Both the position numbers and the translations under genes were made by a program. Below, in pieces: positions 2,147 to 63,920 of a stretch of 64,000 nucleotides of DNA (position 1 is its first letter; each line of letters starts with the position of its first letter). Source of the stretch: Eledone cirrhosa (lineage: Eukaryota); contig OZ024740.1 of NCBI GenBank assembly GCA_964016885.1, positions 277,574,001-277,638,000 on the forward strand, in the 5' to 3' direction. Below the pieces are notes generated by a model. The model was not told the DNA's origin. It saw only the letters and a program-made list of their open reading frames with translations, and did not search any database.

Positions 2147-2180
<34 letters not shown>

Positions 2181-2183
<3 letters not shown>

Positions 2184-2762
2184 AATATGAAAACATGGCG
2201 GGCTGCGTGGTTGCAAATGGGTTACATATGAATAAATTTAGTCCTTCATCAGTGATCTTCCAGCCTTCATTTGTATTTCATCGCTTTAAAGACCATATAC
2301 CTCTGGCTGGTGCGAGCAACGGCTAAAGAAAGTTGTTGGGACACCTAAATAGGGGGAACAAGCGGGACAGTAAACAAGCAAAGATGGTAATGCAACGAAA
2401 AGTGAGGAAGAAGGAGTCAAGTCCCTGAAATCGATGAACATAAGTTCTGTGAAATCGTAGACGAGAGAGAATAAAGACCACCCAACCTGGTCGAAATGTG
2501 TGTGAGGAAAGGATTTCGCACAGGTCAAACAGGATGAAGTAGGAGAGGGAGTAGCAGAGAGTGAGTGAGTGAAAGTGTGTGGAAGAGGCTAACAGAGAGA
2601 GTGACTGGCAGAGGGGGTAACAAGAAAGTGAGTGATACAGAGAAAGGGAAAGCAGTAAGAAAGAAACAGACGGGTCACAGCGGAGGAAAATATATAAGTA
2701 TATTAAAAATATGAAAACAAGGCGTGCTGCCTGGTTGCAAATGGGTTACATATGAATAAATT
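2181..2762 (-). mobile_element. Retrozyme-like non-coding element, 524-bp unit with ~58-bp terminal redundancy (locus B)
   Basis: Direct repeat 2181-2238 / 2705-2762; homologous to 19797-20857 and 26179-29237; flanked by (TA)n. Confidence 0.75.
2241..2342 (-). ncRNA. Putative reverse-order pseudoknotted hammerhead motif with K-turn (copy B)
   Basis: Minus strand: GUCC..UCGC A CCAGCC AGA GGUAU A UGGUCUU UAAA GCGA U GAA AUACA AAU GA A GGCUGG AAGAUCA CUGAUGA A GGAC. Confidence 0.65.
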
Positions 2763-6061: not shown

Positions 6062-6712
6062 ATATAAATATATTGTTATATTTGGGGAGGGTCATATTTG
6101 CGTAATATTGCCAGAATTAATAACAGAACACACTCACTGTTTGGTTGGTTTTCGCTTCTCGCTGTCTTTTTTATATATATATCTGCGATCTAACTTACTC
6201 GGTCCTCAATGTTGCCATTGACTGACCGGCGGTCAAAAAATAATACAGATACAATATAGACACAAACACATATATATAGTTTACATAATTTACATAAATC
6301 TTTCGTTGCACATCTGCAACATCGTCAGTGGTGTTATATTCATTGTTCCTCCTGTTGTGTTGTATGTCTACGCCATTTATTTTTGTTCAGTCTGTCTATA
6401 TATTTATTTATTTATTTGCTTGTTTGTTTATCTTATTTTATTTTGTCTTCTTTGCGCATGCGTTTGCGTGTGTGTATAGTGTTATGTGTGATATGTGACT
6501 AGTGTGTATAGTGTTGTGTCTGCTGGGTGACTAGTGTGTGTTTATGTGCTTGTGTATGTATTTATTTATCTTATTTTATTTAATTTTATTTACTTATTTA
6601 TACTTCTCTTAGGTCAGTGTTGTTTGTTTGGGTGTTGTTGTTGTTCCACTCATTCTTTCTGTTTAGCTTTGGTCTTCTAATTTCTATTTCACTGGCCTCT
6701 CTGATTTGCCTA

Positions 6713-9112
6713 GAGAAACTATTTTTCAACCCAGCTGACAAAACATATAAGATGGGTAATATCTATCCTACGAGGTTACCCTTTAATAAAAGAGTTTGCA
6801 TACCACAGCAAATAGATGACGAGACGGAGGCACAGTTCACCATAGCTAGAAATAAGATTAGACAAGTAGTAGACAGGTACACTATCAGACAGAGCAGACC
6901 AGAGGCCCAACAACTTGGGATAAAACCTGTAGAAGGCTTGGTTAGCCTCAAGCAGCGCACAAGGGATGGTGAGGTAGTGTGTCTACCCACAGATAAGTCT
7001 GGTAGGATGTCAATAGATAGCATGCCGAACTACATCGAGGCAATGCAACCCCACATCACCAACACGAGCGAAGTTGCACAACTAACACACGATGGGAGAG
7101 AAAAAATCCTCAACGCTCACATGATGATGTGGACTGACATCCTAAAGCCAAGCAGACGCACTGCCAACAACTTCCAGGCGTCTAACAATGGCATACCACC
7201 CTTGTATGGGCTCCGCAAAGACCACAAGACAGTCGACGACCCGACAACAGGACCACCAACAAGACCCGTATGCGGAGCTAATATAGCTAGCAACTACAGG
7301 ATCTCCTACTTCCTCTCAATGGTTATACGCCCCATAATCAAGATGTCCCCAGATGTATGTGAAAGTACAGAGGACCTCCTCAGCAGAATCAGTGAGTGCA
7401 ACAAAAACAGGAGCCTATCCAACTGCATAATAGGCATCATGGATGTGGTGTCACTGTACCCATCCATTAACATTGATTTTGCTGTGAAAAGACGTGTGGA
7501 GATGATCATTGAGAGTGAGGTGGAGTTCTGCGACGTCGACACAGACGAACTGGGCCTCCTACTTAGACTTACCTACGACACTGACTACCTAGACAGCCAT
7601 GACCTTAGATGTTTCTGCCCTAGTAGACCTATAAGAGGTAGACCCCCCACCATAACCTCAATGGCTAAAAAGACTCCCATAGGAAGGTGGATTGGGTGGA
7701 CCAAAGCTATACGGACCCCCCAAAACACTGATCAGGTAAGAAAAATGGTCGCACATGCAATAGGGGCTAGTATCAAAACTACCCTAAAGGGCCACATATT
7801 TAAGTTCAATGAGAAAATCTACACCCAAAATGAGGGAGCAGCCATCAGCGTCAGCATAGCTGGTGATGTTGCCAACCTTTTCATGGTATGGTGGGAAAGG
7901 AGACTTAAAGATCTCCTTAATGAAAGCTCCATAGACCTCATCATGTACTCTCGTTATGTAGACGATATCAATATAGTTATAAGAACACCCCCACTAGAGA
8001 GCACTAACAAGTTTGATTTAGAACGTAGCACGATGGAAAGCATCCAGCAGATAGCTAATTCCATACACCAGAGTATAACTGTAAATATAGACTTCCCTTC
8101 CAAACACCCTAACAATAGACTACCTGTATTAGACACAGAACTCTGGATTAACACTATAGACGAGAGAGCCCAAATTCTCCACTCACACTATGCTAAACCC
8201 ATGGCCTCCAAATACCTGATACTCAAAAACTCAGCAATGTCCAGTAGTGCTAAGTTTAATATTCTGATCGCAGATTTGGTACGAGTGATGAAGAAGGTAT
8301 CCAGCATGTGCGACCCAACAGAAATGGAAGGACACATCCAACACTTCATCAACCGCATGCAGTTCTCTGGCTACAACCAAAGAGACAGAGTCAGAGTATA
8401 CGAAGGAGCCATGGAAAAGTATAAGACCCTCATAGAACTGGACATGAAAGGAATTTGCCCACTATACAGGAGCAAATCATGGAATAGCTTAGATAGGGCT
8501 AGACATAAGATAGGGAAGGCCACATCATGGTACGACAACCAGAGATATCAGAGTGTCATGTTTGTGGACGCCACCCCTGGAGGGAAATTAGCTAACCAGT
8601 GTAGAAAGGCCCTGAGAAAGACCCACTTAAAAATAAAGGTGGTAGAAAAGCCAGGAACCACCATAAAATCCCTGATCAGCAAAACCTACCCTTTTAAGAA
8701 AACCCACTGTACCAATAGGATATGTATCATATGTAAGGTGAACCCCCGGATAAACTGTAAAACTAGAAACGTAGTCTATAGCATAAGATGTACAGAGGGT
8801 ACTTACAGAAACATGACAACAACATACATAGGTGAGACAGCTCGTAGCATAGGTGAAAGGATAGACCAACACTGGGGGGAACTAAAAGGACGAAAAAACG
8901 GGTCAGTACTATACGAACATGCTAGACAACAACATGACGGTAACATAGACAACATAGAAATTAGAATAATATCTAAACATAGGAATGACCCAGCAGATAG
9001 GCAAATCAGAGAGGCCAGTGAAATAGAAATTAGAAGACCAAAGCTAAACAGAAAGAATGAGTGGAACAACAACAACACCCAAACAAACAACACTGACCTA
9101 AGAGAAGTATAA
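6713..9112 (+). CDS. PLE reverse transcriptase + GIY-YIG endonuclease (5'-truncated, uninterrupted ~800 codons)
   Basis: PTDKSG, PPLYGLRKDHK, RPVC, MDVVSLYPSI, RYVDD, Cys-rich linker CTNRICIIC, VVY..YIGETARSIGERIDQH, REASEI..PKLN. Codons upstream of 6713 are read-through of the inverted arm. Confidence 0.93.
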   Translation, partial: EKLFFNPADKTYKMGNIYPTRLPFNKRVCIPQQIDDETEAQFTIARNKIRQVVDRYTIRQSRPEAQQLGIKPVEGLVSLKQRTRDGEVVCLPTDKSGRMSIDSMPNYIEAMQPHITNTSEVAQLTHDGREKILNAHMMMWTDILKPSRRTANNFQASNNGIPPLYGLRKDHKTVDDPTTGPPTRPVCGANIASNYRISYFLSMVIRPIIKMSPDVCESTEDLLSRISECNKNRSLSNCIIGIMDVVSLYPSINIDFAVKRRVEMIIESEVEFCDVDTDELGLLLRLTYDTDYLDSHDLRCFCPSRPIRGRPPTITSMAKKTPIGRWIGWTKAIRTPQNTDQVRKMVAHAIGASIKTTLKGHIFKFNEKIYTQNEGAAISVSIAGDVANLFMVWWERRLKDLLNESSIDLIMYSRYVDDINIVIRTPPLESTNKFDLERSTMESIQQIANSIHQSITVNIDFPSKHPNNRLPVLDTELWINTIDERAQILHSHYAKPMASKYLILKNSAMSSSAKFNILIADLVRVMKKVSSMCDPTEMEGHIQHFINRMQFSGYNQRDRVRVYEGAMEKYKTLIELDMKGICPLYRSKSWNSLDRARHKIGKATSWYDNQRYQSVMFVDATPGGKLANQCRKALRKTHLKIKVVEKPGTTIKSLISKTYPFKKTHCTNRICIICKVNPRINCKTRNVVYSIRCTEGTYRNMTTTYIGETARSIGERIDQHWGELKGRKNGSVLYEHARQQHDGNIDNIEIRIISKHRNDPADRQIREASEIEIRRPKLNRKNEWNNNNTQTNNTDLREV

Positions 9113-9376: not shown

Positions 9377-9420
9377 CACCACTGACGATGTTGCAGATGT
9401 GCAACGAAAGATTTATGTAA
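9377..9420 (+). ncRNA. Minimal type I hammerhead in PLE 3' UTR (inverted twin at 6290-6333, minus)
   Basis: CA CTGACGA T GTTGCA gatg TGCAAC GAAA GATT TA TG; stem I is short. Confidence 0.7.
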
Positions 9421-9967: not shown

Positions 9968-10759
9968 CGTATTTAAGAAAGCCACAACAATGCAAAGGGA
10001 AATCTCGAGGTAGGAAGTGAAATATAGATAGGAAAAACAGGTGAAAGTGAAAGTTGAGAGAGACAAAGATGAAAACAAAACAAAGGTAGAAGGGTTACCG
10101 TAGTAGAGATTTTAATCCCAATATTTCGGGCTCACGCCCATCAACGGGGGAAAAGTTCCAAAAGGGGGGAAAACAGGCCAAGCGGAGAAAGTGTTGATGT
10201 CGTTAAGACAGGAATGCCGTTATGGGGAGAAAAATATTTAAAATTTAAACGAGGGAGAGAATGCGCGTGCGCGTGATAAGCTGTGGCAAAAGCTACTGAC
10301 CAAATGGGTTAAATCAAGAGGGTGCGTTAGCGTGTGAAAGCCTTAAGATATGTGTATGTAAATATATATGTGTGTGTGACTGTGTGTGTATAGGTGTAAG
10401 TGTGTATATGTGTGAGTGTGTGTGTGTGTGAAAGGTAGTGGGCTGTAGAAGTTGGAAATCAAAGGGTGTGAAAGGTGGTAGGTTGTAAAATATGTGTGCG
10501 TGTATAAATATAGAAGTGTGTGTGTGTAAGCGTATGGGTATACATGTGTGTGTGTAACTGTGTATGTATATGTGTGAGTGCGTTTGTGTGTGAAAGATAG
10601 TGGGCTGTAGAAGCTGGAAATCAAAGGGTGTGAAAGGTGGTAGGTTGTAAAAACATGTGTGCGTGTAAAATATAGAAGTGTGTGTGCATGCGTATGGGTA
10701 TGCATATACGTGCGTGTGTGTGAATATAACAGGCCGTAGGCTGTGAATGGTCATTATGG

Positions 10760-11338
10760 TTAAATTAGCCATGTCAGCTCATTTCTCTCGGCCCGGTTGT
10801 TAAGTGGGGGTCTGAGGTTCTTAATAACAAGTGCTTCCTTTATCCTTAAGGATCCGATGCTGCGTTCAGTCGCTAGGACTGTGACCAAGGGTCTACCCTG
10901 TGGGTTTCCGCATTTGAGGATATGTTTACGGAAGGAAGATGCGTTGGTGTTGATATGTTCCTTGATACGAACATGTAGGGGTCGGATGGTGCTACCTATG
11001 TAAAACTTGTTACATTTATCGCATTGAATCTTATATACGACATAGGTGCGTAGGCAATCTGCCCCCCGTATCGGGCAGTTGCTGAGGGAACAAGTCCTAT
11101 CTGCCTCGTAGGGTTTGTTGGAGAGGCATCTTCGCAGCGAAGGTCCTGTGTGGGCCAAATGTATGTCAAGTCCCTCCGTACGTATGGCCCTGCGGATGGC
11201 GTTCGTGGTACATTCACTCAGGTGGGGGATTTTAAAGAAGCACCTGCTAATATTAAGTTTTCTAGTGGGTGTCGGTCTACTGGGTCTGGGGTCTCTAATT
11301 CCGTTAATCAGTCGCTTGGGATAACCATTAGATCTGAG
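10760..11338 (-). pseudogene. 5'-truncated PLE ORF (thumb end + GIY-YIG), left arm
   Basis: LRSNGYPKRLI..CSLSNCPI..VVYKIQCDKCNKFYIGSTIRPLHVRIKEH..IKEALVI..PPLN. Confidence 0.9.
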
Positions 11339-11885
11339 TAACGGAATTAGAGACCCCAGACCCAGTAGACCGACACCCACTAGAAAACTTAATATTAGCA
11401 GGTGCTTCTTTAAAATCCCCCACCTGAGTGAATGTACCACGAACGCCATCCGCAGGGCCATACGTACGGAGGGACTTGACATACATTTGGCCCACACAGG
11501 ACCTTCGCTGCGAAGATGCCTCTCCAACAAACCCTACGAGGCAGATAGGACTTGTTCCCTCAGCAACTGCCCGATACGGGGGGCAGATTGCCTACGCACC
11601 TATGTCGTATATAAGATTCAATGCGATAAATGTAACAAGTTTTACATAGGTAGCACCATCCGACCCCTACATGTTCGTATCAAGGAACATATCAACACCA
11701 ACGCATCTTCCTTCCGTAAACATATCCTCAAATGCGGAAACCCACAGGGTAGACCCTTGGTCACAGTCCTAGCGACTGAACGCAGCATCGGATCCTTAAG
11801 GATAAAGGAAGCACTTGTTATTAAGAACCTCAGACCCCCACTTAACAACCGGGCCGAGAGAAATGAGCTGACATGGCTAATTTAA
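11339..11885 (+). pseudogene. 5'-truncated PLE ORF (GIY-YIG), right arm
   Basis: Same peptide as the left arm, starting at NGIRDP. Confidence 0.9.
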
Positions 11886-12722
11886 CCATAATGACCATTC
11901 ACAGCCTACGGCCTGTTATATTCACACACACGCACGTATATGCATACCCATACGCATGCACACACACTTCTATATTTTACACGCACACATGTTTTTACAA
12001 CCTACCACCTTTCACACCCTTTGATTTCCAGCTTCTACAGCCCACTATCTTTCACACACAAACGCACTCACACATATACATACACAGTTACACACACACA
12101 TGTATACCCATACGCTTACACACACACACTTCTATATTTATACACGCACACATATTTTACAACCTACCACCTTTCACACCCTTTGATTTCCAACTTCTAC
12201 AGCCCACTACCTTTCACACACACACACACTCACACATATACACACTTACACCTATACACACACAGTCACACACACATATATATTTACATACACATATCTT
12301 AAGGCTTTCACACGCTAACGCACCCTCTTGATTTAACCCATTTGGTCAGTAGCTTTTGCCACAGCTTATCACGCGCACGCGCATTCTCTCCCTCGTTTAA
12401 ATTTTAAATATTTTTCTCCCCATAACGGCATTCCTGTCTTAACGACATCAACACTTTCTCCGCTTGGCCTGTTTTCCCCCCTTTTGGAACTTTTCCCCCG
12501 TTGATGGGCGTGAGCCCGAAATATTGGGATTAAAATCTCTACTACGGTAACCCTTCTACCTTTGTTTTGTTTTCATCTTTGTCTCTCTCAACTTTCACTT
12601 TCACCTGTTTTTCCTATCTATATTTCACTTCCTACCTCGAGATTTCCCTTTGCATTGTTGTGGCTTTCTTAAATACGTATTTTTACACATTTCACAATGC
12701 TTCAAGCAAACTTTAACACCCT

Positions 12723-19772: not shown

Positions 19773-19796
<24 letters not shown>

Positions 19797-19803
<7 letters not shown>

Positions 19804-20857
19804 AAGTGAGTCCTTCATCAGTGACCCTCCAACCGTCCTCGGCATTTCATCGCTTTAAGGGCCATATGCCTCAGGTTGGTGCGAACAACGGCTAAAAAAA
19901 GTCGTTGGGACACGTAAATAAAGGGGGACGCTAGAGTAACAACAAAAGGGTTTAAGCAACGGAAAGTGAGTAGAAATAGACAAGTCCCAGATCTCTATGA
20001 ATATAAACTCTGTGAAATCGTGAACAAGAGACGAAAGACCATCGAACCTGGTAGAAATGTGAGCAAGGAAAGAATTTCGCCCAAGTTTGACGGGGGGGAA
20101 AAAAGAGAGAGAGAGAGAAAGAAGAAGAAGAAGAAGAAGAAGAAGAAGAAGAAGAAGAAGAAGAAGAAGAAGAAGAAGAAGAAGAAGAAGAAGAAGAAGA
20201 AGAAGAAGAAGAAGAAGAAGAAGAAGAAGAAGATAAGGTGGTCTGGTCTACGAATTCGGTAAACGCAAGTTTTGTGAAGTCGCAGACGAAAGAGAGAGAG
20301 AAAAAAATTCCATACCAGCTCGGTCAAGACTGCGCGAGAAAAGAATTACACACAGGTCAAACTTGAAGGAGGAGGAGGAAAGAGGAGGAGGAGAGGTAGT
20401 GACAGAGAATGAGTGAGTGAAAGTTGAGGAGAGAGTAACAGAGAGGGAGACTGCTAGAAGTGGTAAAGATACAAGGAACGAAACAGACAGGCAGCATGGA
20501 AAAGTAATATGTGTAAATATGATGATAATAATGGAGCTGCGGCGTTGCAAATGGGATACATATGAAAAAGTGAGTCCTTCATCAGTGACCCTCCAACCGT
20601 CCTCGGCATTTCATCGCTTTAAGGGCCATATGCCTCAGGTTGGTGCGAACAACGGCTAAAAAAAGTCGTTGGGACACGTAAATAAAGGGGGACGCTAGAG
20701 TAACAACAAAAGGGTTTAAGCAACGGAAAGTGAGTAGAAATAGACAAGTCCCAGATCTCTATGAATATAAACTCTGTGAAATCGTGAACAAGAGACGAAA
20801 GACCATCGAACCTGGTAGAAATGTGAGCAAGGAAAGAATTTCGCCCAAGTTTGACGG
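19797..20857 (-). mobile_element. Retrozyme-like element, 764-bp unit, ~1.4 copies, with internal (AAG)n (locus C)
   Basis: ~297-bp direct repeats 19797-20093 / 20561-20857; two motif copies at 19810-19911 and 20574-20675. Confidence 0.8.
20574..20675 (-). ncRNA. Putative reverse-order pseudoknotted hammerhead motif with K-turn (copy C; identical at 19810-19911)
   Basis: GUCC CAACG..CGUUG U UCGC A CCAACC UGA GGCAU A UGGCCCU UAAA GCGA U GAA AUGCC GAG GA C GGUUGG AGGGUCA CUGAUGA A GGAC. Confidence 0.7.
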
Positions 20858-26178: not shown

Positions 26179-29100
26179 GGCAAATCACTGATGAGGGACT
26201 TATTTTATTACATGTTACCATGTGCTACCTGCAGTATTTTTCTCTATATTTTAATACATATATTTACCACTGCGATTCTGTGTTTTTTTCTCTCTCTCTC
26301 TTACTGTTCCCCTATTCTCTCTGTTTCTCCCCCTCTGTCTTGTCCGTTAACTCTTCCTCACACTTTCACTCACTCACTGTTTTTCTCCCTCTTCTCTTCA
26401 TTTCATCCTGCACTCACGAACGCTATTTTTTCTCGCTCTGCTCAATGGCTTTCGTTCGTGTTGGTACTATTCTCTAAGCTCTCATATATTCACCTAGCTT
26501 ATGCTAAACGAATTATTTTTGAAGCTTGTTTCTCCCCTAAGGTATGCTATATTTTCTGTTGTTCTCCTGTCTCACTCGCTTTACGCGTTTTAATTGTCCT
26601 AATAACTTATTTTGGTTATTATTGCACCGAAGTGAGATATATGATTTTTAATGCAATGAAATATCTATGATCTTCGGCAAATCACTGATGAGGGACTTAT
26701 TTTATTACATGTAACCATGTGCTACCTGCAGTATTTTTCTCTATATTTTAATACATATATTTACCACTGCGATTCTGTGTTTTTTTCTCTCTCTCTTACT
26801 GTTCCCCCATTCTCTCTGTTTCTCCCCCTCTGTCTTGTCCGTTAACTCTTCCTCACACTTTCACTCACTCACTGTTTTTCTCCCTCTTCTCTTCATTTCA
26901 TCCTGCACTCACGAACGCTATTTTTTCTCTCTCTGCTCAATGGCTTTCGTTCGTGTTGGTACTATTCTCTAAGCTCTCATATATTCACCTAGCTTATGCT
27001 AAACGAATAATTTTTGAAGCTTGTTTCTCCCCTAAGGTATGCTATATTTTCTGTTGTTCTCCTGTCTCACTCGCTTTACGCGTTTTAATTGTCCTAATAA
27101 CTTATTTTGGTTATTATTGCACCGAAGTGAGATATATGATTTTTAATGCAATGAAATATCTATGATCTTCGGCAAATCACTGATGAGGGACTTATTTTAT
27201 TACATGTTACCATGTGCTACCTGCAGTATTTTTCTCTATATTTTAATACATATATTTACCACTGCGATTCTGTGTTTTTTTCTCTCTCTCTCTTACTGTT
27301 CCCCCATTCTCTCTGTTTCTCCCCCTCTGTCTTGTCCGTTAACTCTTCCTCACACTTTCACTCACTCACTGTTTTTCTCCCTCTTCTCTTCATTTCATCC
27401 TGCACTCACGAACGCTATTTTTTCTCTCTCTGCTCAATGGCTTTCGTTCGTGTTGGTACTATTCTCTAAGCTCTCATATATTCACCTAGCTTATGCTAAA
27501 CGAATAATTTTTGAAGCTTGTTTCTCCCCTAAGGTATGCTATATTTACTGTTGTTCTCCTGTCTCACTCGCTTTACGCGTTTTAATTGTCCTAATAACTT
27601 ATTTTGGTTATTATTGCACCGAAGTGAGATATATGATTTTTAATGCAATGAAATATCTATGATCTTCGGCAAATCACTGATGAGGGACTTATTTTATTAC
27701 ATGTTACCATGTGCTACCTGCAGTATTTTTCTCTATATTTTAATACATATATTTACCACTGCGATTCTGTGTTTTTTTCTCTCTCTCTTACTGTTCCCCC
27801 ATTCTCTCTGTTTCTCCCCCTCTGTCTTGTCCGTTAACTCTTCCTCACACTTTAACTCACTCACTGTTTTTCTCCCTCTTCTCTTCATTTCATCCTGCAC
27901 TCACGAACGCTATTTTTTCTCTCTCTGCTCAATGGCTTTCGTTCGTGTTGGTACTATTCTCTAAGCTCTCATATATTCACCTAGCTTATGCTAAACGAAT
28001 AATTTTTGAAGCTTGTTTCTCCCCTAAGGTATGCTATATTTTCTGTTGTTCTCCTGTCTCACTCGCTTTACGCGTTTTAATTGTCCTAATAACTTATTTT
28101 GGTTATTATTGCACCGAAGTGAGATATATGATTTTTAATGCAATGAAATATCTATGATCTTCGGCAAATCACTGATGAGGGACTTATTTTATTACATGTT
28201 ACCATGTGCTACCTGCAGTATTTTTCTCTATATTTTAATACATATATTTACCACTGCGATTCTGTGTTTTTTTCTCTCTCTCTCTTACTGTTCCCCCATT
28301 CTCTCTGTTTCTCCCCCTCTGTCTTGTCCGTTAACTCTTCCTCACACTTTCACTCACTCACTGTTTTTCTCCCTCTTCTCTTCATTTCATCCTGCACTCA
28401 CGAACGCTATTTTTTCTCTCTCTGCTCAATGGCTTTCGTTCGTGTTGGTACTATTCTCTAAGCTCTCATATATTCACCTAGCTTATGCTAAACGAATAAT
28501 TTTTGAAGCTTGTTTCTCCCCTAAGGTATGCTATATTTACTGTTGTTCTCCTGTCTCACTCGCTTTACGCGTTTTAATTGTCCTAATAACTTATTTTGGT
28601 TATTATTGCACCGAAGTGAGATATATGATTTTTAATGCAATGAAATATCTATGATCTTCGGCAAATCACTGATGAGGGACTTATTTTATTACATGTTACC
28701 ATGTGCTACCTGCAGTATTTTTGTCTATATTTTAATACATATATTTACCACTGCGATTCTGTGTTTTTTTCTCTCTCTCTTACTGTTCCCCCATTCTCTC
28801 TGTTTCTCCCCCTCTGTCTTGTCCGTTAACTCTTCCTCACACTTTCACTCACTCACTGTTTTTCTCCCTCTTCTCTTCATTTCATCCTGCACTCAGGAAC
28901 GCTATTTTTTCTCTCTCTGCTCAATGGCTTTCGTTCGCGTTGGTACTATTCTCTAAGCTCTCATATATTCACCTAGCTTATGCTATGCTAAACGAATAAT
29001 TTTTGAAGCTTGTTTCTCCCCTAAGGTATGCTATATTTTCTGTTGTTCTCCTGTCTCACTCGCTTTACGCGTTTTAATTGTCCTAATAACTTATTTTGGT

Positions 29101-29229
29101 TATTATTGCACCGAAGTGAGATATATGATTTTTAATGCAATGAAATATCTATGATCTTCGGCAAATCACTGATGAGGGACTTATTTTATTACATGTTACC
29201 ATGTGCTACCTGCAGTATTTTTCTCTATA

Positions 29230-29237
<8 letters not shown>
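26179..29237 (+). repeat. Tandem array of ~496-bp non-coding units (~6.15 copies), retrozyme-like (locus A)
   Basis: Unit starts at 26179, 26676, 27171, 27668, 28163, 28660, 29160; units near-identical; (TA)n flanks. Confidence 0.97.
26596..26696 (+). ncRNA. Putative reverse-order pseudoknotted hammerhead motif with K-turn (copy A, first of six)
   Basis: GUCC UAAUAAC..GUUAUUA UUGC A CCGAAG UGA GAUAU A UGAUUU UUAAU GCAA U GAA AUAUC UAU GA U CUUCGG C AAAUCA CUGAUGA G GGAC. Confidence 0.7.
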
Positions 29238-29286
<49 letters not shown>

Positions 29287-31234: not shown

Positions 31235-31957
31235 TTAGAAATAGCGTGGGGGCAAGAAGAGAATATCTCAGACTTTCTATTAAGTAAGGATTCACTAGAG
31301 AAAATTATAGTGTGTCTCAAGGATACAGAGATTACAAAATTTAGTATGTGTAGAAAGGTTAATAGAGCGTGCTACTAAACGCCAATTAAGGCTATATGGT
31401 ATATTAGCCCCCTTAAGATCCCAGATATAGTGTGCTAAAGAAGTAGAATTCTTAAACTTAACATGTTTGAAATTAGAGATATTAGAATTAAACCTAGTCT
31501 TAAAAGTGTTAGATGTAGAGCCTATATATGTTCTATTAGAGGAATTAGTTATAACTACGCAAGCATAAACGATGTTCTTAGAGAGGCAGTTACCGTTTAA
31601 AGGGCAGTTAGCACCCACTCTACAGTTACACTTCCGGGTGCTATTGATTGGCTGAAGTAGTAATGCATTACGCGTAGGATTAGTATTAGATAAGGTCTGC
31701 TCTGGTGGTAAGGCATTTGCAGATCTGTTCTGACTAGTAGTATGTAGAGAGGAGTATCCATCCCTAATTTTCCTATTGTTAGTGCTAGCTAAATGAGAAC
31801 TAATATTAGGGGTGGTAGAGAATGAGAGTTTAATAACATTTTTATTAAAAATACTATGGTATTTATGAGAAGGGGGAAATTTTTCTTTAAGATAGAAAAG
31901 AAGGACCTAGGGATATTAGTTAATACTTCCTGATTATATGGCGGGTTAAAATAAGTA
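31235..31957 (-). pseudogene. Disrupted PLE ORF (linker + GIY-YIG)
   Basis: CNCRVGANCPLNGNCLSKNIVY..YIGSTSNTFKTRF..STSLAHYIWDLK..CNLCILE, with frameshifts. Confidence 0.88.
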
Positions 31958-37660: not shown

Positions 37661-38760
37661 AGGTGTTAAAGTTTGCTTTGAAGCATTGTGAAATGTGTAA
37701 AATACGTACTTAAGAAAGCCACAACAATGCAGAGGGAAATCTCGAGGTAGGAAGTGAAAGATAGATAGGAAAAACAGGTGAAAGTGAAAATTGAGAGAGA
37801 CAAAGATGAAAACAAAACAAAGGTAGAAGGGTTACCGTAGTAGAGATTTAACCCCAATATTTCGGGCTCACGCCCATCAACGGGGGAAAGTTCCAAAAGG
37901 GGGGGAACAGGCCAAGCGGAGAAAGTTGTGATGTCGTTAAGACAGGAATGCCGTTATGGGGAGAAAATTATTTAAAATTTAAACGAGGGAAAGAATGCGC
38001 GTGCGCGTGATAGGCTGTGGCAAAAGCTACTGACCAAATGGGTTAAATCAAGAGGGTGCGATAGCGTGTGAAAGCCGTAAGATATGTGTGTGTAAATATA
38101 TATGTGTGTGTAACTGTGTGTGTATAAGTGTAAGTGTGTATATGTGTGAGTGTGTGTGTGTGTGAAAGATAGTGGGCTGTAGAAGCTGGAAAGTGAATGG
38201 TCACTATGGTTAAGTTAGCCATGTCAGCTCATTTCTCATAGCCCGGTTGTTAAGTGGGGGTCTGAGGTTCTTAATAACAAGTGCTTCCTTTATCCTTAAG
38301 GATCCGATGCTGCGTTCAGTCGCTAGGACTGTGACCAAGGGTCTATCCTGTGGGTTTCCGCATTTAAGGATGTGTTTACGGAAGGAAGATGCGTTGGTGT
38401 TGATATGTTCCTTGATACGAACATGTAGGGGTCGGATGGTGCTACCTATGTAAAACTTGTTACATTTATCGCATTGAATCTTATATACGACATAGGTGCG
38501 TAGGCAATCTGCCCCCCGTATCGGGCAGTTGCTGAGGGAACACGTCCCATCTGACTCGTCGGGTTTGTTGGAGAGGCATCTTCGCAGCGAAGGTCCTGTG
38601 TGGGCTAAATGTATGTCAAGTCCCTCCGTCCGTATGGCCCTGCGGATGGCGTTCGTGGTATATTCACTCAGGTGGGGGATTTTAAAGAAGCACCTGCTAT
38701 TATTTAATTTTCTAGTGGGTGTCTGTCTATTGGGTCTGGGGTCTCTAATTCCGTTAATCG
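37660..38760 (-). mobile_element. 5'-truncated PLE, same family as 9961-12724 (GIY-YIG at 38210-38760)
   Basis: Near-identical peptide and 3' UTR; UTR lacks the internal duplication of the palindromic copy. Confidence 0.93.
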
Positions 38761-38769
38761 GAATATATA

Positions 38770-38825
<56 letters not shown>

Positions 38826-38982
38826 CGAAGGAAATGTGGTAAGGAACCAGGTGGACCATATCGCACGAAAGTACTCAATCCTTGAGGTAGTAGAGTGGGT
38901 AATAGGTAGTGAGGTAGTAGAGTGGGTAATATATATATATATATATATACATATATACATATTTATACATATATATATATAC

Positions 38983-40597: not shown

Positions 40598-43500
40598 GAC
40601 GACAGTCAACGCGATCAGTCGCATATTTTGGCGTGGGAGACCATTTATTAAATTTAAGATGAATACTATCTCCGACAGTAATGCCACAACTACAGCCAGG
40701 TTGACTGGTTGTTCTTCTGGTTATTCTTCTAACTATACCTTCTGAAGACACTTTTTATTCGAATTTGTAGAGATATCCGACTAAATACATAATTCATTTT
40801 ACAAGGATTTGCTACAAACAGCATGGCTGAATACAACATCAACAAAAACATTAAGGAAGTACCGAAGACAAATAACAAGGAAGGTAATCAAACTTTATTC
40901 AGTTGTAGCTACAGAAGAACCCGAAATTATAAATCGCATTTCTCTTGGAGTTGCGAACTTAATAATGATTTATTTAATTGTTATGAAATGGCAAAAAAAC
41001 AATCCCTCCATTGGCTATATGAATAGAATGAAGCTACACTGGGACGAAATGCACCCAGAGCTAAATTATTTCACAGCGAAACAATTACGCCAACAAGCGA
41101 CGTTTGTTGAACGTAAAAATAAGATAAATATTATTAATTGTAAGTCCCCCACAACAAACATGGAATCAACAACACGTGCTACAGATCGCCATGCTACTAG
41201 ACTTCCTAGCAGCCAGGTCGAACAGCGCCTTGAAACAACTATGCCTGTAAGAATTTGACACCACCTATACCATCTAAGTCTACCTCGAATGCTGGGGAAA
41301 ACACTATCGTTAATAATAATTGTTTCTACGTTAGGCACAAGGCCAGCAATTACCCAGTGCATTACTGGTACTTTAATTTATCGACCCCTTAAGGATGAAA
41401 GGCAAAGTTAACCTTGGCGGGATTAATCGAAGAAATAATAATAATAATCGAATAAATGTGACACCACGTATACCATCTGAGTCTACCTCGACTGTTGTTG
41501 AAAATACTATCGATAATGATAATCAAAAGTATAAACAATTGAAAATTTCCCCCAACGAAATTTTCCAGAGAGAAATTAACTCATGTGTAAATATCTCTCT
41601 GGCTGAACGTGTTAAAATGACAATGGTGAATAAAAAACCAAATAATGAAATACTACGTGTTATTGACGAAATAGGGGATGAATATTTACGACGGATAAAA
41701 ACCCCAACATTTTGGCAAATCAACGCCTGTTTATATACCTTAGCAATGACAGTGAAGCATTATCTTGGTGATAGCAGAGATATTAACAAGAACAAAACAC
41801 CACCAAAAATACCATCATATATAACTAAAATAGAAAAAAAGAGTGCTGACCTACGAAAAAACATAGGACATGTGACAATGCTCCTTACATGCAAACAAAC
41901 ACAAAAAAACCTCACTCCTCACCAACAAAGAGTGAAAAATAAAATAGAGACGATGTTTTGTAGCAGTAGAACCAGAACTCTCCAATATAAGCTGATCACC
42001 CTCAAACAAGAATTGAGAGCTGTTAGCGAAAAACGCCGATACCCGAAGAAGGTAGATGAGAGAAAAGTGCTTAATAAAATATTCAGATGAATCCAAACAT
42101 CAGTCTATAGAGATATGAAGGGCAAAATAATAAGTGTTACTGAGGCCCCATCCCAGAAAGACATAGATTCCTTTTGGAGAAAAATATGGGATGAAAAGAA
42201 GAATTTCAACCAAGATGCAGTGTGGCTAAGAGAAATCCGAAAGAACTATTGCTCCTACACTACAACAAAAACATACGAAATAAGTGAGGGTACGTACCCT
42301 TGAGACTGTGATAGGAAAACTCCAAGATAAGAAAACACCAGGAAGAGACATGATTGTCGGCTACTGGTAGAAAAAACTAATATTCTATCGGAGGTATCTT
42401 ACTGACCTCTACCAACAAGTTCTTAAGGGAGATACACTTATACCAGAATGGTTGACATTAGCACAAACGTTACTGGTCGCCAAGAACATATCACACACTT
42501 GGCAAAAAACTACCGACCCATTGTATGCCAGAACCTGATGTATAAGATGTATACAGCCTGCCTGAACCTATTCCTCCAAGATCACTGTGAAAATAATAAC
42601 ATCATCACAGATGAACAAACAGCTGTAAAGAAAGAGGTTTGGGTATGTGCTGAACAACTCCTAATCAACAAAACTGCGATGTCGGAGGTGCGACAACTTA
42701 GGAGAAATATGACTACAGTCTGGCTGGACTACAGGAAAGCTTTCGATTCTGTTCCCCACTCTTAGATGATAGAGGCCCCCCAACTTGCTAAAGTCCCAGA
42801 CATTATTGTCAGAGCCATAGAGAGGCTGTCTTCTTCTTGGGCTACTAACCTAAGGTTAAAGTCAGTCTATTTTCACTGATAAAATAAAATATTGCAGGGG
42901 TATTTCAGGGGGACAGTCTCTCTGTGATATTATTCATCTTGTCATTAAACCCCTTGTCCTTTCTGCTCAAGAAATGTGAGGGATACATCATGGCCTCACA
43001 GGAGGACAGAAATACGAACCTAACCCATAATTTCTTTGTGGATGATCTAAAACTCTATCCCAAGAACATGGATGGGATGAAGAAAAATCTTGACCTGGTT
43101 ACAACGTTCTCTAAGGATATAGGAATGGAGTTTGGCCAAGATAAATGCTCATACATGACTGTAAAGCGGGGAAAAACAACAACCCAATCTAGCAACATTG
43201 TCATCAATGGTCTAACTATTTCACCGATATCTGATGAGGACTGCTACAGATACCTAGGGATAGATGAGAACATATCCCATAATGGTATCTGTAATAAAAA
43301 ACGCGTAACCAGGGAATACTACATCTGATTAAGAAAGATCTGGTCATCGGAACTCTCTACGCAAAACAAAACAGTGACTCACAATGTGTTTGCTGTGCCT
43401 GTCCTAACACCAACGTTTGGAATACTCAATTGGACGATAGACGAAATCCGAGCAGTTTATGTTGGAACTCGAAAAATACTGAGCAACAGCGGAAACGTCC

Positions 43501-44811
43501 ACATCAACAGTGACATAGACCGCCTTTACTTGAAACGTAAGCAGGCAGGCAGAGGCCTAACATCAGTCCAGAAAACATTTGAATGTCGTATCATATCTCT
43601 CCGACAACATCTACGAACCTCGAAGCGTAGGAGCCCGTTTCTCGAGCAAGTATATCTGCATGGAACAGATAAGATCATGAGAGTTGGGAGGGAACTCCTT
43701 GAGAATATTCCCTGTGTGATAATCAAAAACTCACACCCAGGGATGTCGCTCAGCAGTATCGCAGTGAATACATGCATGCTTATCAGCAAAAAATCATGCA
43801 TGCCTATTTTGCCAGGAAGCTCCAGAGTGAGAGTAGTATAGATAAGGAAAGTAGTGTATCTTGGACCAACAACCGCTATATTGGCTCCCACTTTGAAGGA
43901 TACACTTTTGCAATCCAGGAACAGGAGATTAGCACGAAATACCTGATTCACAAAAGAGACAGGGATGCAGGCAAAACACCTAGATGTGATAACAAGTGCA
44001 AACTCTGCAGAACATCGAGGATATCACCCATGTCATCAGCAGCTGTCCAAAGATGTCATCGCGGTACTATCTACCTATGAGGCATGATGTAGTCGCCAAA
44101 ACACTGTACAATGCAGTTCATAAAAATGTTAGTCCCGTTAATAAACACATTAAAAGCTACAACAATGTGGAAGACATCCATGTACATAATATGAAAGAGT
44201 ACTGGTGCAATGTACCACTATAAACCCCAATAAAATGCAGTCATAACAGACCAGATATTATGATATGGGACAGGGAGAAGAAAGCATGCACAGTAGTGGA
44301 AATTAGCTGCCCAGCAGACGCCAATATAATATCAAAGATTAGTGAAAAGGAGAATATTTATGCAGAACTGATGAGAAATCTGCAGATACTCCACCCTGAT
44401 TACACCTTCAGATTTATGCCTGAGATTATTGGGGCACTGGGATATGTTAGTAACTGCCTCAATACAAATGTTGAGAAGCCAGGCTTCACAGGAACAGAAA
44501 GAACACAACTAGCTAGGAAATTACAAGTACAATCCATTAATGGAACAGTAAAAATATGTGAAACATTCCAAACATTTTGCATCTAATAACTGCATATACA
44601 CATGTACAGATACAAAGCATATACACATGCACACATACAATTCAAAATATACACAACCACACATACAATAACACCCCTATCTACACATGCATACATACAT
44701 ATCTACCTAGTTGATGTTGTGTAAATTCCAATGAGAGAGTCTTGTGTCTATGTTAGAAACCGACTCTCTCTCTATTGGTAAAACTTTGTGAAATTATAAA
44801 ACCAGAAAAAC
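40598..44811 (+). mobile_element. Degenerate non-LTR retrotransposon with RT and restriction-like endonuclease (R4/Dong-like)
   Basis: NYRPIVCQNLMYK, WLDYRKAFDSVPHS, FQGDSLS, FFVDDLKLY, CKLC..HVISSC, RHD, RPDIMIWD..VEISCP; many stops and frameshifts; (CATA)n on both sides. Confidence 0.9.
41320..41428 (-). mobile_element. 5'-truncated SINE inserted in the R4-like element
   Basis: Matches 47231-47340 and 52153-52260. Confidence 0.8.
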
Positions 44812-52637: not shown

Positions 52638-53635
52638 AGTGAAAACTGGAACGGGAACGAAAACAGAGAGGCAGTACAAACAAATGTTTATTAGTTTCAC
52701 GCTCTTGAGAGGGGGGGGGGAGACGTTCGGGCATAACCTCTTCTTCAGGAGAAAAGTGGTTGGGAAGAGAGTTCCGAGGGTGTGTGGGGGAGTGGTGGAG
52801 AGACATTTAGAAAAAAGGGAGGAGAAACGGTGGAAGGGGTACAAATAAAAATATAAATAAAGATAAACAAGTGGTGGAAGGATGTGGGGCGTGTATGGGT
52901 GGTGGCGGGTGGAGTAGGGAGAGGGGGGGTCCGAGCGGGGAGGGATGAAGGTGGTGTTTGTGTATGTGTGTAGGTGTACGCGTGTGTATGTGTATGTGAA
53001 GCCTGAATGTGTATATGTGGGGGTACGCACGTGTGTGTTGGTGTCTATACGTGGTGTGGATGTAGGTGGCCTGGTTCGAAAAAAGATTGTGATTGTATGT
53101 CCGTGGGTAAGTTCCTAAGGTATTTCCGAGGAGTGCGATGAGGTACCGGATATTTGTTCATGTTATGGAGTGGATAGCTGGAACGATGAGCGGTGGTGTG
53201 TAATTCGTTGGTTGTGGTGGTCGGAAGTGGGGAGATGTGGGGTGCGCGTGCAACAGGAAGTGGTCAGAGAGTCAAGGCAGGATGAAGAGATAGCAGTAGA
53301 GGAGAATGACAGGTGGAGAAAGTCAGTGTGTGGTGAGGACTGTGTGTCTGTGTGTGCGCAGGTGCGGTAGACAGGGGAGGGGATGGGTAGGTGTGAAAGG
53401 TGGGGTGGGGAGGGGGTCATGTGGGGTGGGGTGTATTAGTAGAGGTGTTAGAGGGATGTGTGTATGTGAAAGGGTGTGGGTGGAGCGGGGAGAGGGAAAG
53501 GGAGAGAAAAGGTGTGGGGGTCGGTGGAGGGAGTGTAGTGTACTTGTGGGTCTTGATGAGGTGGTAGAAAGTGGGCAGTCTGCTATTTCTAGTGGTGTAG
53601 TTGAGCTTAACTTTATTCGGGAGTTGTCTTCTCCT
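52638..53635 (-). mobile_element. Inverted arm: short RT N-terminal piece fused to an unrelated CA-rich 3' end
   Basis: Minus strand RRQLPNKVKLNYTTRNSRLPTFYHLIKTHK, then non-coding sequence ending in a decayed CTGAAGA..CCCGAAC motif and (TA)n. Confidence 0.65.
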
Positions 53636-53641
53636 ACAGAT

Positions 53642-55035
53642 ATCAAGACCCACAAGAATAGCACTAAGACGCAAATAAGACCCATCGTCTCTAGCATAGA
53701 AGGACCCCTATACAAAATTTCCTGGCTTCTCTCCCAGGTCCTCAAGCCTCTACTCTCCACCTTCCCCGGGCATGTCAGTAGCTCCGACGAAGTTATACGT
53801 AGACTACACCAACTCCAGCCAGAACAACTTAAACTAAATAAATACGCTTTTAGCCTCGACGTTGTCTCCCTCTACACTACAGTCCCCGCTCACCCAGCTG
53901 TCGATTTATTGACGGACTGCGTGGTCGCAGAGAACATCCACTGCTACGGCCTCCACCCGACGGACATACACCAGCTTTTGTCCTTCACAGTAGACAACAC
54001 GTACTTCACCTTCCAACACCACACATACAGACAGACAACAGGATTACCCATGGGATCCAGCCTTTCGGGCCTGCTGGCCATCACCTACATGAACCAGCTA
54101 GAATGCCGAGCCCTCAACACCTGCCATTCCCATGCCTTCTTCACCCGATATGTAGATGACATACTCATCCTTACATCATCCCGTGAGGAGGCAGAGAAAA
54201 TATACACAACATTCTCCAGCATGGACGCCAGTATAAAGTTCAGCATGGAACACCCCGATGACCGCGGATCCCTATCCCTACTGGACTTCCAACTCAGGGT
54301 AACAGAGGAAGGCAACATCCACACCTGCTTCTATAAAAAATCCGCCAGCAGGGACCTGTTCGTACATTTCAGATCGGCCCTCCAATTCGGTGTCAAGTTC
54401 GGATACATAAAGAACGAACTGGCACGTATCAAGAACAAATGCACCGACGCCAGAGACCGAGACACACACACCACACATTTCCTGGAAGTACTCAAACTGA
54501 ACGGATACACGACATCCACCACAAACCGTGCCAGAAAGAACAGAGGACACCACACCCGAGGCACTAACACTTGCTTCCTGAAGCTCCCACACTTCAGTGA
54601 AGAAACAACAACAGCCATCCGCAGAGCCATCAGACGAGAGGGACTGGATATCCAACTGGCCCACTCGGGTCCTTCTCTGCGCGGACGGCTGGCCAAGAGA
54701 CACTCCACCAGACATGACAACTGCTGCAGACTAGCCAACTGCCCCATCAACGACACAGACCTATGCCACCAGGCTTACGTAGTATACAGACTAGAGTGTG
54801 ACAAATGCAACAACTTCTACGTAGGTAGCACCACCAGACCACTCCACATAAGAATAAAAGAACACCTCAATACTAACGCTTCCTCATTTAAGAAACACCT
54901 AGTTAAATGCAAAAACACCGATAAAAACATAACAGTTAGGATAGAAACTAAGGAAAGAAACCTCGGCAATCTTAGAATTAAGAAGCACTTATTATAGATA
55001 AAACGTATCCTCCAATCAATAATAGACTAGAGCTC
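53642..55035 (+). pseudogene. 5'-truncated PLE RT + GIY-YIG ORF (frameshift near C-terminus)
   Basis: IKTHK..IRPIVS, SLDVVSLYT, GLPMGSSLS, RYVDD, SLLD, NGY, VVY..YVGSTTRPLHIRIKEH. Confidence 0.93.
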
Positions 55036-61847: not shown

Positions 61848-63920
61848 GTGGGTTTCAGGAAAAGGACGCAGTACAACCGATCAATGCCTCCGACTCTCCC
61901 AATTCATCTCGGATGGGTTCCAGTCGTTGCAGCGCAAACGCACCCTAACCACCTTTTTCGACTTTAGCAGGGCGTACGATCGTGTCTGAAGAACCGGACT
62001 ACTGTAGAGCATGCTGAGGCTTGGTGTGCCCCTACGTTTTGTTGAATGGTTGTCGACATGGTCTGAGAACCGCACCGCGAGAGTCCGTCTTAACTCAACG
62101 ACAGGTAGGAGCAGAGTGTTAAAAGAAGGCCTTCCACAAGGGGCCGTCCTGCCTCCAATCCTCTTCACGGTCTACATAAACAGACTCCTAGATGGATTTG
62201 AAGAATCTACGCACGTCAACGCCTACGCAGATGATCTGGCGATCGTGTGTAACGGAAGGAATAAAGATGAAGTAGCCGTCCTACTACAAAAAGAGGTTGA
62301 CAAGGTAGCTGAATGGAGCAAGGAAGCTAGACAGCAGCTCAATATTAATAAATGCGAGACAGCATTTTTCTGTCTTGATGGAGCAGAGGCAAAGTGGCAG
62401 CCCAATATCGCAATAGCCGGGAAGCAACTTTCTTGCAACCCTTTCCCAAAATTCATGGGCATCACATACGATCGGCAGTTAACCTTTGGGGAACATGTCG
62501 AGAAGGTATGTCGAACTATCCAATCGAGAACGAACCTGCTAAAGACTGTAGCAGGAACGACGTGGGCCTGGAAGAAGGCGGGTCTTCGCCAAATCGACAG
62601 TGCCGTACAACGAAGCATCACAGAATATGCGGCTCCGGGGTGGACACCCTGGTTGTCTGACACCAACATCGGCAAGCTCGAAAGAGTACAACTAGACGTG
62701 GATCGAGCCATCACCTGCCAAGTCAGAACTCCCCCCCCCCCGACCGAAACTGTGCTAGCAGAATCCCAGTTACCTACGCTCTCCTCCAGATTCTCGACAT
62801 TTGCACTGCTTAAAGCTGATCACTGGGCAAACCTACCAAAGACGGACAAATGGCACAAAGTTTTCAATACCAGCTACCGAAAAAGGCTCAAAAAGACAGA
62901 CTGGAGAGGTACCCAATCCCAGCACCTGGCACGACTACATCTTATCCCTTCGAGACCCCTACCAAAGAACCCAGAACCTCCCCTATGGCTACCGCACCCT
63001 CCATACATGTAATCTACACCAATACCCCAAAGTCCCAAAACGCAAACCAACAACTGACGGCAGCCTTAGACACCATATCAACCCTCGCCCCGTCAGATGT
63101 TCAAATCTACACCGATGGGTCTACAAAAGAAGGTACTACTGATGGCAGAGATGGTATGGTCATCATGAAAGATGGTGCGCTTGTCCACGAGTGGCATACA
63201 GCAACAGGTGCTAGAAGTAGCTCCTTTCACTCAGAAAAAGCTGCGCTGAGAGAAGCCATCCACTGGTTACAAACCAATAACGCAAAATGGACTTCGGCGA
63301 CCATCATCTGCGACTGTAAATCTCTAGTTCAGGCAGTCGACAACTCTGCCCCCAAAGATTCCACTATAACAGAACTCCAGGCAGCAGTTAACAACCTCGG
63401 AGAAAATAAAAACCTAACTGTTGTATGGGTCCCTGGTCACTGTAATCTATAAGGGAATGAACTAGCAGACAAACTCGCAAAGCAGGGCTCCTCACTTCCA
63501 CAACCTAACACCCCTGCTGACCATGCCACGAGACAAGTTCTCAACAAAAGTGAGTGTAGACCAGCACCCTTCACCCACGTGAAGAAAACCTTCAGAAAAC
63601 CGCCGGACGAGAGAGTCGAAAAGAGAGTCGAAGGCTGATCTCACCCACCTTATCTGCTTCAGAAGTGGGCACCTTCCAGCACTTCGCAGGTGGCAGCTAC
63701 TGACTGACAAATGTGAAGACAGCACTTGCAGACTCTGCGGTGAAGAGAAGGAGGAGTCTGAACACCTCTGGCTACGATCCCCTGCATTGGCGATCGAGTG
63801 ATACCATCACCAACTCGGTACATCCTTAGAGGAATTAGTCCGTCTCCCAGTCGCATCTCTAGCGCTTCTGAAGAGGATCCTCAGGCGCCTGAGGTGAATC
63901 AACAACAACAACACAACAGC
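61848..63920 (+). mobile_element. 5'-truncated non-LTR retrotransposon with RT + RNase H (I superfamily, possibly Ingi-like)
   Basis: FFDFSRAYDRV, GLPQGAVLPP, YADD; RNase H QIYTDGS..E..D..WVPGH..GNELAD; CRLC..H finger; (CAA)n tail; stops and frameshifts. Confidence 0.9.

Follow-up and report, generated by a model that had tools for sequence, protein, structure and literature searches.

The window analysed here, a stretch of 64,000 nucleotides from Eledone cirrhosa (contig OZ024740.1, positions 277,574,001 to 277,638,000), contains three loci of an abundant non-coding repeat. We consider it best explained, with a probability of about 0.6 on sequence grounds, as a ribozyme repeat of the block order S-G-C which a Penelope-like reverse transcriptase, acting in trans, inserts into (TA)n. 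The family of reverse-order hammerheads is real and conserved, and is probably catalytic.

Locus B is a non-coding element on the minus strand (2180..2762), inserted in (TA)n and flanked by TA arrays at 1635-2179 and 2764-2834. It consists of one unit of 524 bp and a 58-bp terminal repeat, the 5′ copy of which (2705..2762, minus strand) is identical to 2181-2238 at 55 of 58 positions and marks the 5′-truncation point of the locus. Locus A (26179..29244, plus strand) belongs to a related subfamily with the same motif and comprises 6.2 tandem units of 495-500 bp, while locus C (19792..20857, minus strand), of a third subfamily, comprises 1.4 units of 764 bp and carries the motif twice. Loci A and B can be aligned throughout the unit (64% identity), and unit lengths in the family range from 445 to 764 bp.

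Read 5′ to 3′ on the minus strand, the motif of locus B begins with one strand of a closing helix, P0 (GUCC, 2339..2342), which pairs with GGAC at 2244-2241, followed by the hairpin arm of a four-way junction (2317..2338) and by the 5′ strand of stem II (UCGC, 2315-2312), which lies upstream of the cleavage block and pairs with GCGA at 2284-2281. The non-bulge strand of a kink-turn-like motif and its helix (2301..2310, pairing with 2260-2272) leads into block S (2289..2300), which holds a strand of stem III, the cleavage triplet with U16.1 (2297) and A17 (2296), and a strand of stem I; the cut is predicted between 2296 and 2295. After a 4-nt linker, block G (2273..2284) contributes the second strand of stem II, U2280, GAAA (2279-2276) and the second strand of stem III. 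The bulge strand of the kink-turn-like motif (2260..2272) has a 3-nt bulge (2271-2269) and GA (2268-2267), and its helix (CCAGCC 2310-2305 with GGCUGG 2265-2260) runs straight into stem I. Block C (2241..2259) supplies the second strand of stem I, CUGAUGA (2252-2246), A2245 and the 3′ strand of P0. The 3′ tail (2180..2240), in which the two 3′ end sites of the family lie, follows. Stem I pairs UGGUCUU (2295-2289) with AAGAUCA (2259-2253) and stem III pairs GUAU (2300-2297) with AUAC (2276-2273).

Every helix and motif that a preliminary description had listed for 2342-2241 is present; P0 and the hairpin at 2338-2317 are two additional elements. The terminal mismatch of stem III which it recorded is also there (G2301-A2272), as a deviation peculiar to this copy: G-C is the majority in nine of the ten subfamilies, and also the majority letter in the contigs of one sample, the kind of which is unrecorded. 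Locus B has six differences among its 73 duplicated sites and two pair-breaking letters (at 2272 and 2334) that are absent from the majority, from which we surmise that part of its variation is decay. The pair G2307-C2263 looks like a two-step compensation in progress, judging from its own subfamily, where the position is A-C in 35 of 57 copies, A-U in 18 and G-C in two.

Kink-turns are characterized by a 3-nt bulge followed by tandem G-A and A-G pairs between two helices. At the level of sequence, and with the GA of the bulge strand forming part of the search pattern, the full consensus is found in six of the ten subfamilies; three have U for G at 2n, and one has a plain bulge. The A at 2302 is found in all nine subfamilies other than F. 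In subfamily F (L176, L190, L198 and related loci), Watson-Crick pairs take the place of the tandem G-A pairs and only the plain 3-nt bulge is left, so that this subfamily offers a natural control for what the kink does.

A 12-nt motif of the family matches the window 10 times, where 0.37 matches are expected. In the 3.0-Gb genome a core-spacing pattern containing only GAAA, GA and CTGATGA, the matches of which count motifs rather than insertions, was found 14,416 times with a leading T (11 times for the reversed control), while a leading C gave 1,718 matches (five for the control). For closer study we used a non-random sample of first-listed matches, mainly from one contig (C1), and top similarity matches. 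This gave 205 loci, 270 motif matches and 166 unique untruncated copies, of which 161 were kept after five junction or deletion copies were dropped; they fall into 10 subfamilies with at least three members each. Rarer and more diverged motif subfamilies were also seen (L034, L185, L189, L197, L074, L128, L140:2190-2300), the members of which are too few or too decayed for alignment. A metagenome scan with the family pattern gave no matches, and in Rfam the window has no match at the gathering score, sub-threshold matches occurring only near locus B.

The insertions carry the marks of Penelope-like elements, for which a one-sided "tail" and inverted truncated copies are described (PMC8557442). 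Of the 99 mapped 3′ ends, 81 adjoin TA. Among 98 pattern-selected arms of at least 100 nt, 89 end at one of two fixed sites, which lie +65-73 (32 arms) and +100-130 (57 arms) from the predicted cut; locus B stops at the distal one. In 22 of 24 insertions with two inverted arms, one arm ends at the proximal site and the other at the distal site. The microsatellite target, 5′ truncation, inverted arms and a tail at one end only are all found, and we regard insertion of the Penelope type as very probable. The 99 mapped arms span 0.09 to 2.45 units and 31 of 98 are one unit or longer; their 5′ ends are scattered without a clear pile-up at the predicted cut, approximately eight of 98 falling within 6 nt of it, after removal of two split-alignment artefacts, and six more at +7 to +15. 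The layout of one unit plus about 58 nt, which the preliminary description had read as expected from reverse transcription of a circular or tandem RNA, is thus present at locus B, but it is no signature of the family, the fixed features of which are the two 3′ end sites; given the varied arm lengths, the 58-nt excess is simply where the locus B copy was truncated.

In 84 of the 98 arms the sequence crosses the predicted cut upstream, so the template is not a cut linear monomer; it would be either a circle or an uncleaved precursor. We lean slightly toward the circle. In this scheme multi-unit transcripts would be cut once per unit, 3′ of position 17, and the monomers would be ligated into circles; a Penelope-like enzyme would nick (TA)n and prime reverse transcription at one of the two internal sites, and synthesis would then continue across the rejoined cut site to varying extents. 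Reverse transcription that starts internally has been reported (PMC11167929), and the pattern of ends fits it. Locus B, having a single ribozyme, would be unable to release a monomer; it probably represents a dead end.

The best-surviving alternative retains the same ribozyme and the Penelope-type insertion but makes the template a linear, uncleaved multi-unit or read-through transcript, cleavage being slow or protein-gated and serving a different step, for example the release of the RNA from host transcripts. For a Poseidon element in vitro, uncleaved RNA is reported as the dominant template and the hammerhead as protein-assisted (PMC11167929), and the SGC ribozymes published so far cleave slowly. 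Arms that cover two cut sites number only 15 of 98. No A-to-G editing marks common to the duplicated parts are evident in subfamily B (four of 43 shared changes). At locus A the units alternate between 497 and 495 bp, units 1, 3 and 5 having a common 2-bp insertion and units 3 and 5 a common substitution; the alternation, which a single monomer circle leaves unexplained, suggests a dimer template or a later duplication of two units. The Poseidon result, the alternating units and the absent editing marks keep this alternative alive. Against it stand the 31 arms of one unit or longer and the arrays of up to 6.2 near-identical units, which linear copying from sources mostly shorter than a unit would keep poorly, as well as the report that related animal retrozymes form circles (PMC7229834). 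On balance we consider a linear template unlikely, though not negligible.

With the retrozymes without LTRs described from metazoans (Cervera and de la Peña 2020, PMC7229834; Li, Clavereau and Pollet 2026, 10.64898/2026.07.22.740005) the family shares dispersed tandem units that are non-coding and each carry a ribozyme, and a proposed Penelope-like origin, and its unit lengths lie inside the range of 51-972 reported there. Retrozymes are, however, defined by a type I hammerhead and have been shown to form circles, whereas the ribozyme here is of another type and its circles are only proposed.

The repeat has the complete hammerhead core, with stems I and III flanking it: CUGANGA, GAAA, the A15.1-U16.1 pair and a residue other than G at position 17. 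In all 151 copies outside subfamily F, U16.1 is present and position 17 is A or C, never G, even though block S lay outside the search patterns. Where loci were chosen by similarity over the whole element, 45 of 52 motif copies have an intact core. A descriptor of block S passes 82 of 116 genome matches, compared with four of 74 matches in viral contigs, which looked like chance and served as the control (80 of 120 loci used). The block order S-G-C sets the motif apart from type I hammerheads. Instead of the direct stem II formed by the strands after A9 and before G12, of which at most one pair is left (A2245-U2280), the strand that follows CUGAUGA and the one that precedes GAAA have separate upstream partners, and a hairpin between these partners completes a four-way junction. 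In subfamily F this junction has no unpaired bases. Published hammerheads all have a direct stem II, and the lack of one counts against our explanation. In our model, stem III, the kink-turn and the 6-bp helix would form a hairpin whose loop contains blocks S and G, stems I and II would arise where the flanks pair back into that loop, and the kink would return the far end of stem III to stem I; the four-way junction of core, P0, hairpin and stem II would stand for the ordinary stem II. From this model, RNA of the repeat is predicted with good confidence to self-cleave as a hammerhead with its parts in scrambled order.

Hammerhead blocks S, G and C were defined by Eckert et al. in 2023 (PMC10085705), who describe permuted hammerheads from environmental sequence; that paper reports none in any known organism's genome, apart from one GCS candidate. 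Its type SGC (HRIMA-1 and an SGC variant) cleaves in vitro at 0.007-0.19 per minute. Our family is like type SGC in its block order, full core, pseudoknotted stems I and III and a short linker joining stem I to stem II (4 nt in our family, typically 3 in theirs). Unlike in type SGC, stem II does not pair blocks G and C directly and no extra helix encloses block C; the junction is made with upstream strands, and stem III runs through the kink-turn-like motif into stem I. The word "kink" is absent from the main text of that paper. Because the wiring departs from the published stem II we treat the motif as SGC-like in its working, rather than as a plain SGC member. The block order is thus already published; the wiring and the genomic setting are new, type SGC having been found in no genome of a known organism, according to the same account, whereas this family has thousands of copies in an animal. 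Our literature search, mostly of open papers, found no description of permuted hammerheads in animal repeats or in Naiads, a group of Penelope-like elements.

The fold might have been kept as a protein-binding or packaging element, for instance as a kink-turn RNP or as the site that the reverse transcriptase recognizes, that no longer cleaves. The kink-turn has box C/D-like words, 2252-2296 gives a C/D snoRNA match, albeit a weak one that falls far short of the family threshold (E 1.2), stem II is rewired, and most arms read through the cut site. We nevertheless find this improbable, as all positions of the catalytic core, including U16.1 and the non-G at 17, have been kept while the stems turned over, and subfamily F keeps its core without a kink-turn. 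Still less probable is an ordinary hammerhead assembled between tandem units or between two molecules, in which the reversed order would be only apparent. Small hammerheads associated with Penelope-like elements are said, in the title of a work cited in PMC10085705, to cleave as dimers, but the cyclic order S-G-C stays non-canonical under repetition, in no subfamily that we have seen does the strand following CUGAUGA pair with the one preceding GAAA, and all partners covary within 102 nt of a single unit.

The preliminary description had presented locus B as independent covariation relative to locus A. Since the two are homologous over the whole unit, they provide one phylogenetic contrast rather than independent evidence. 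Among 33 proposed pairs, 17 are unchanged between them, nine have changed on both sides and still pair, one has changed on one side and pairs, four are unpaired in one of the two loci, and two are gaps, caused by an aligned stretch of locus A that ended two bases early. A larger alignment had been proposed as a check. Here the outcome differs between single pairs and the whole structure. In a per-pair test resembling R-scape (G-test with APC, tree-based null, 60 replicates) on the 161 copies of this one genome, no single pair was significant (best E 1.15, effective n about 16), in a sample at which the test has little power and in which the sequence-only aligner misaligned subfamily F. The structure as a whole covaries clearly. 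In a set of 23 copies, made up of loci A, B and C and of those two members of each subfamily that lie closest to its majority, 89.9% of 720 cells are paired compared with 30-47% for slid controls, and 19 of the 33 pairs show two-sided change. On the subfamily tree, double changes on the same branch that stay canonical number 11-15. Shuffling the partners among those columns which likewise pair in subfamily B gives a null mean of 2.3-3.4, and none of 3000 nulls reaches the observed minimum. Pair-breaking events fall below the null only when subfamily F is excluded. Relative to locus B, all 21 distinct double changes are canonical, where 9.3 are expected.

Broken down by helix, the paired cells and the pairs with two-sided change are 88% and five of seven for stem I, 90% and two of five for stem III, 98.9% and two of four for stem II, 94.5% and five of six for the kink-turn helix, and 90% and four of seven for the hairpin arm. 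Subfamilies D and F have different sequences at P0, which still pair. Because the structure was drawn after loci A-C had been seen, subfamilies D, G and F constitute the cleanest tests; in D and G, which are absent from the window, the double changes are canonical in eight of eight cases each. The individual helices are weak and nested folding fails to recover the structure: in a nested minimum-energy model locus B folds no better than shuffled sequences do (z 0.07), pseudoknots being outside that model. We are highly confident that the fold is under selection. That the pairings are due to chance and the covariation to shared ancestry among subfamilies is already largely refuted and can scarcely be credited: no single pair is significant, only about ten subfamilies are at hand and the structure was drawn on three of the loci, but the tree-aware test of the whole structure, the held-out subfamilies and the slid controls all contradict it, as do the Naiads of several phyla, in which this layout is combined with stem sequences that are unrelated.

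Naiads (Craig et al. 2021, PMC8557442) target (TA)n and are described as lacking canonical hammerheads, some giving "core" or "half core" matches. In the supplementary consensus file of that paper we searched for the four CUGANGA words, covering places 25-58 of 62, 3-15 of 23, 3-15 of 25 and 3-27 of 43, together with part 24 and six entry boundaries; the comparison was made by eye, is qualitative, and misses words broken across lines. Within this coverage a reverse-order hammerhead could be parsed at the 3′ end of at least 17 of 54 Naiad entries, from six phyla. Nine entries have the order S-G-C and the same four-way junction (one Clytia, three Acropora, Morbakka-2, Pomphorhynchus, one crustacean and two Octopus), two have S-G-C with a less clear junction (Beroe and Euprymna), and six have C-S-G with a direct stem II (four named as nematode and two nematode by position in the file). 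Five viewed 3′ ends, three of them marked incomplete, lack the motif (Crassostrea, Octopus minor, Didymodactylos, Thalassophryne and Morbakka-1). In the nematode entries a helix encloses block C, as far as can be seen by eye; type CSG has so far been backed by only two metagenomic sequences in the account of Eckert et al. (PMC10085705). Judged by eye, the stem sequences in the Naiad entries covered are unrelated between phyla, and they constitute the strongest, if qualitative, covariation evidence.

The family resembles the Naiads of that paper in its (TA)n targeting, partial tandems, inverted truncated arms and one-sided tail, and the two Octopus entries share its spacing from GAAA to CUGAUGA, its kink-turn-like motif and its junction. 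Naiads differ in encoding an endonuclease and a reverse transcriptase, whereas the family is non-coding, and the tail is about 50 nt here against 30-40 nt there. The likely ancestor of the motif is, in our view, a Naiad 3′ end. The Naiad lineage itself appears dead in this genome: a search with Naiad reverse transcriptase gave 90 matches, all broken remnants with no open frame above 233 codons, none of 23 remnants, all old and broken, has the motif downstream in sense orientation, the exact motif of the octopus Naiads is absent from the genome, and of the other Naiad searches two were empty and one gave three remnants. Pfam has no family for the Naiad piece. In one case the repeat is inserted antisense in the flank of a Naiad remnant.

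A candidate for the helper is an intact and very young Penelope-like family in the window, with an 842-codon open frame at 6584-9112 (plus strand), for which Pfam has no family. A first look at the genome gave 44,515 candidates, and all 57 scored matches are 99-100% identical; the open frames reach about 1,200 codons and there is a C-terminal endonuclease-like region. No common sequence is detectable between the tails of locus B or the family and the Penelope-like elements of the window. Minimal hammerheads in canonical order lie at 9382 (plus strand) and 6328 (minus strand), on the two inverted arms of this element, and eight further hammerhead-like cores in canonical order (29468, 32660, 33002, 33503, 45507, 46562, 55470 and 56115) are in part probably the ends of other Penelope-like elements or retrozymes. 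Other Penelope-like fragments (10314-12720, 31295-31906, 38210-38962 and 53300-54997) include an inverted two-armed insertion, pieces resembling an endonuclease, and a frame of 565 codons that matches RVT_1 and GIY-YIG. Broken LINE-like reverse-transcriptase frames are found at 40785-44586 and 62008-63452.

A broader reading, which we offer tentatively and hold to be less likely than its opposite, is that reverse-order hammerheads are the ancestral 3′-end ribozyme of the Naiad clade, in the S-G-C four-way form in cnidarians, an acanthocephalan, a crustacean and cephalopods and in the C-S-G form in nematodes. The present family would then be a circular-RNA parasite that has retained a kink-turn form of this ribozyme, has outlived its Naiad parent and now rides on another Penelope-like enzyme, its cleavage possibly switched on by a host protein that binds kink-turns. 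Cleavage by the motif, if true, would explain why Naiads seemed to be without the ribozyme borne by other Penelope-like elements, since the standard descriptors assume the canonical order. The kink-turn would be a natural answer to a point left open by Eckert et al., namely how the far end of stem III is linked to the side of stems I and II. Under the same condition of cleavage, hammerheads that are permuted in a non-circular manner would be abundant in animal genomes, and in a wiring hitherto undescribed.
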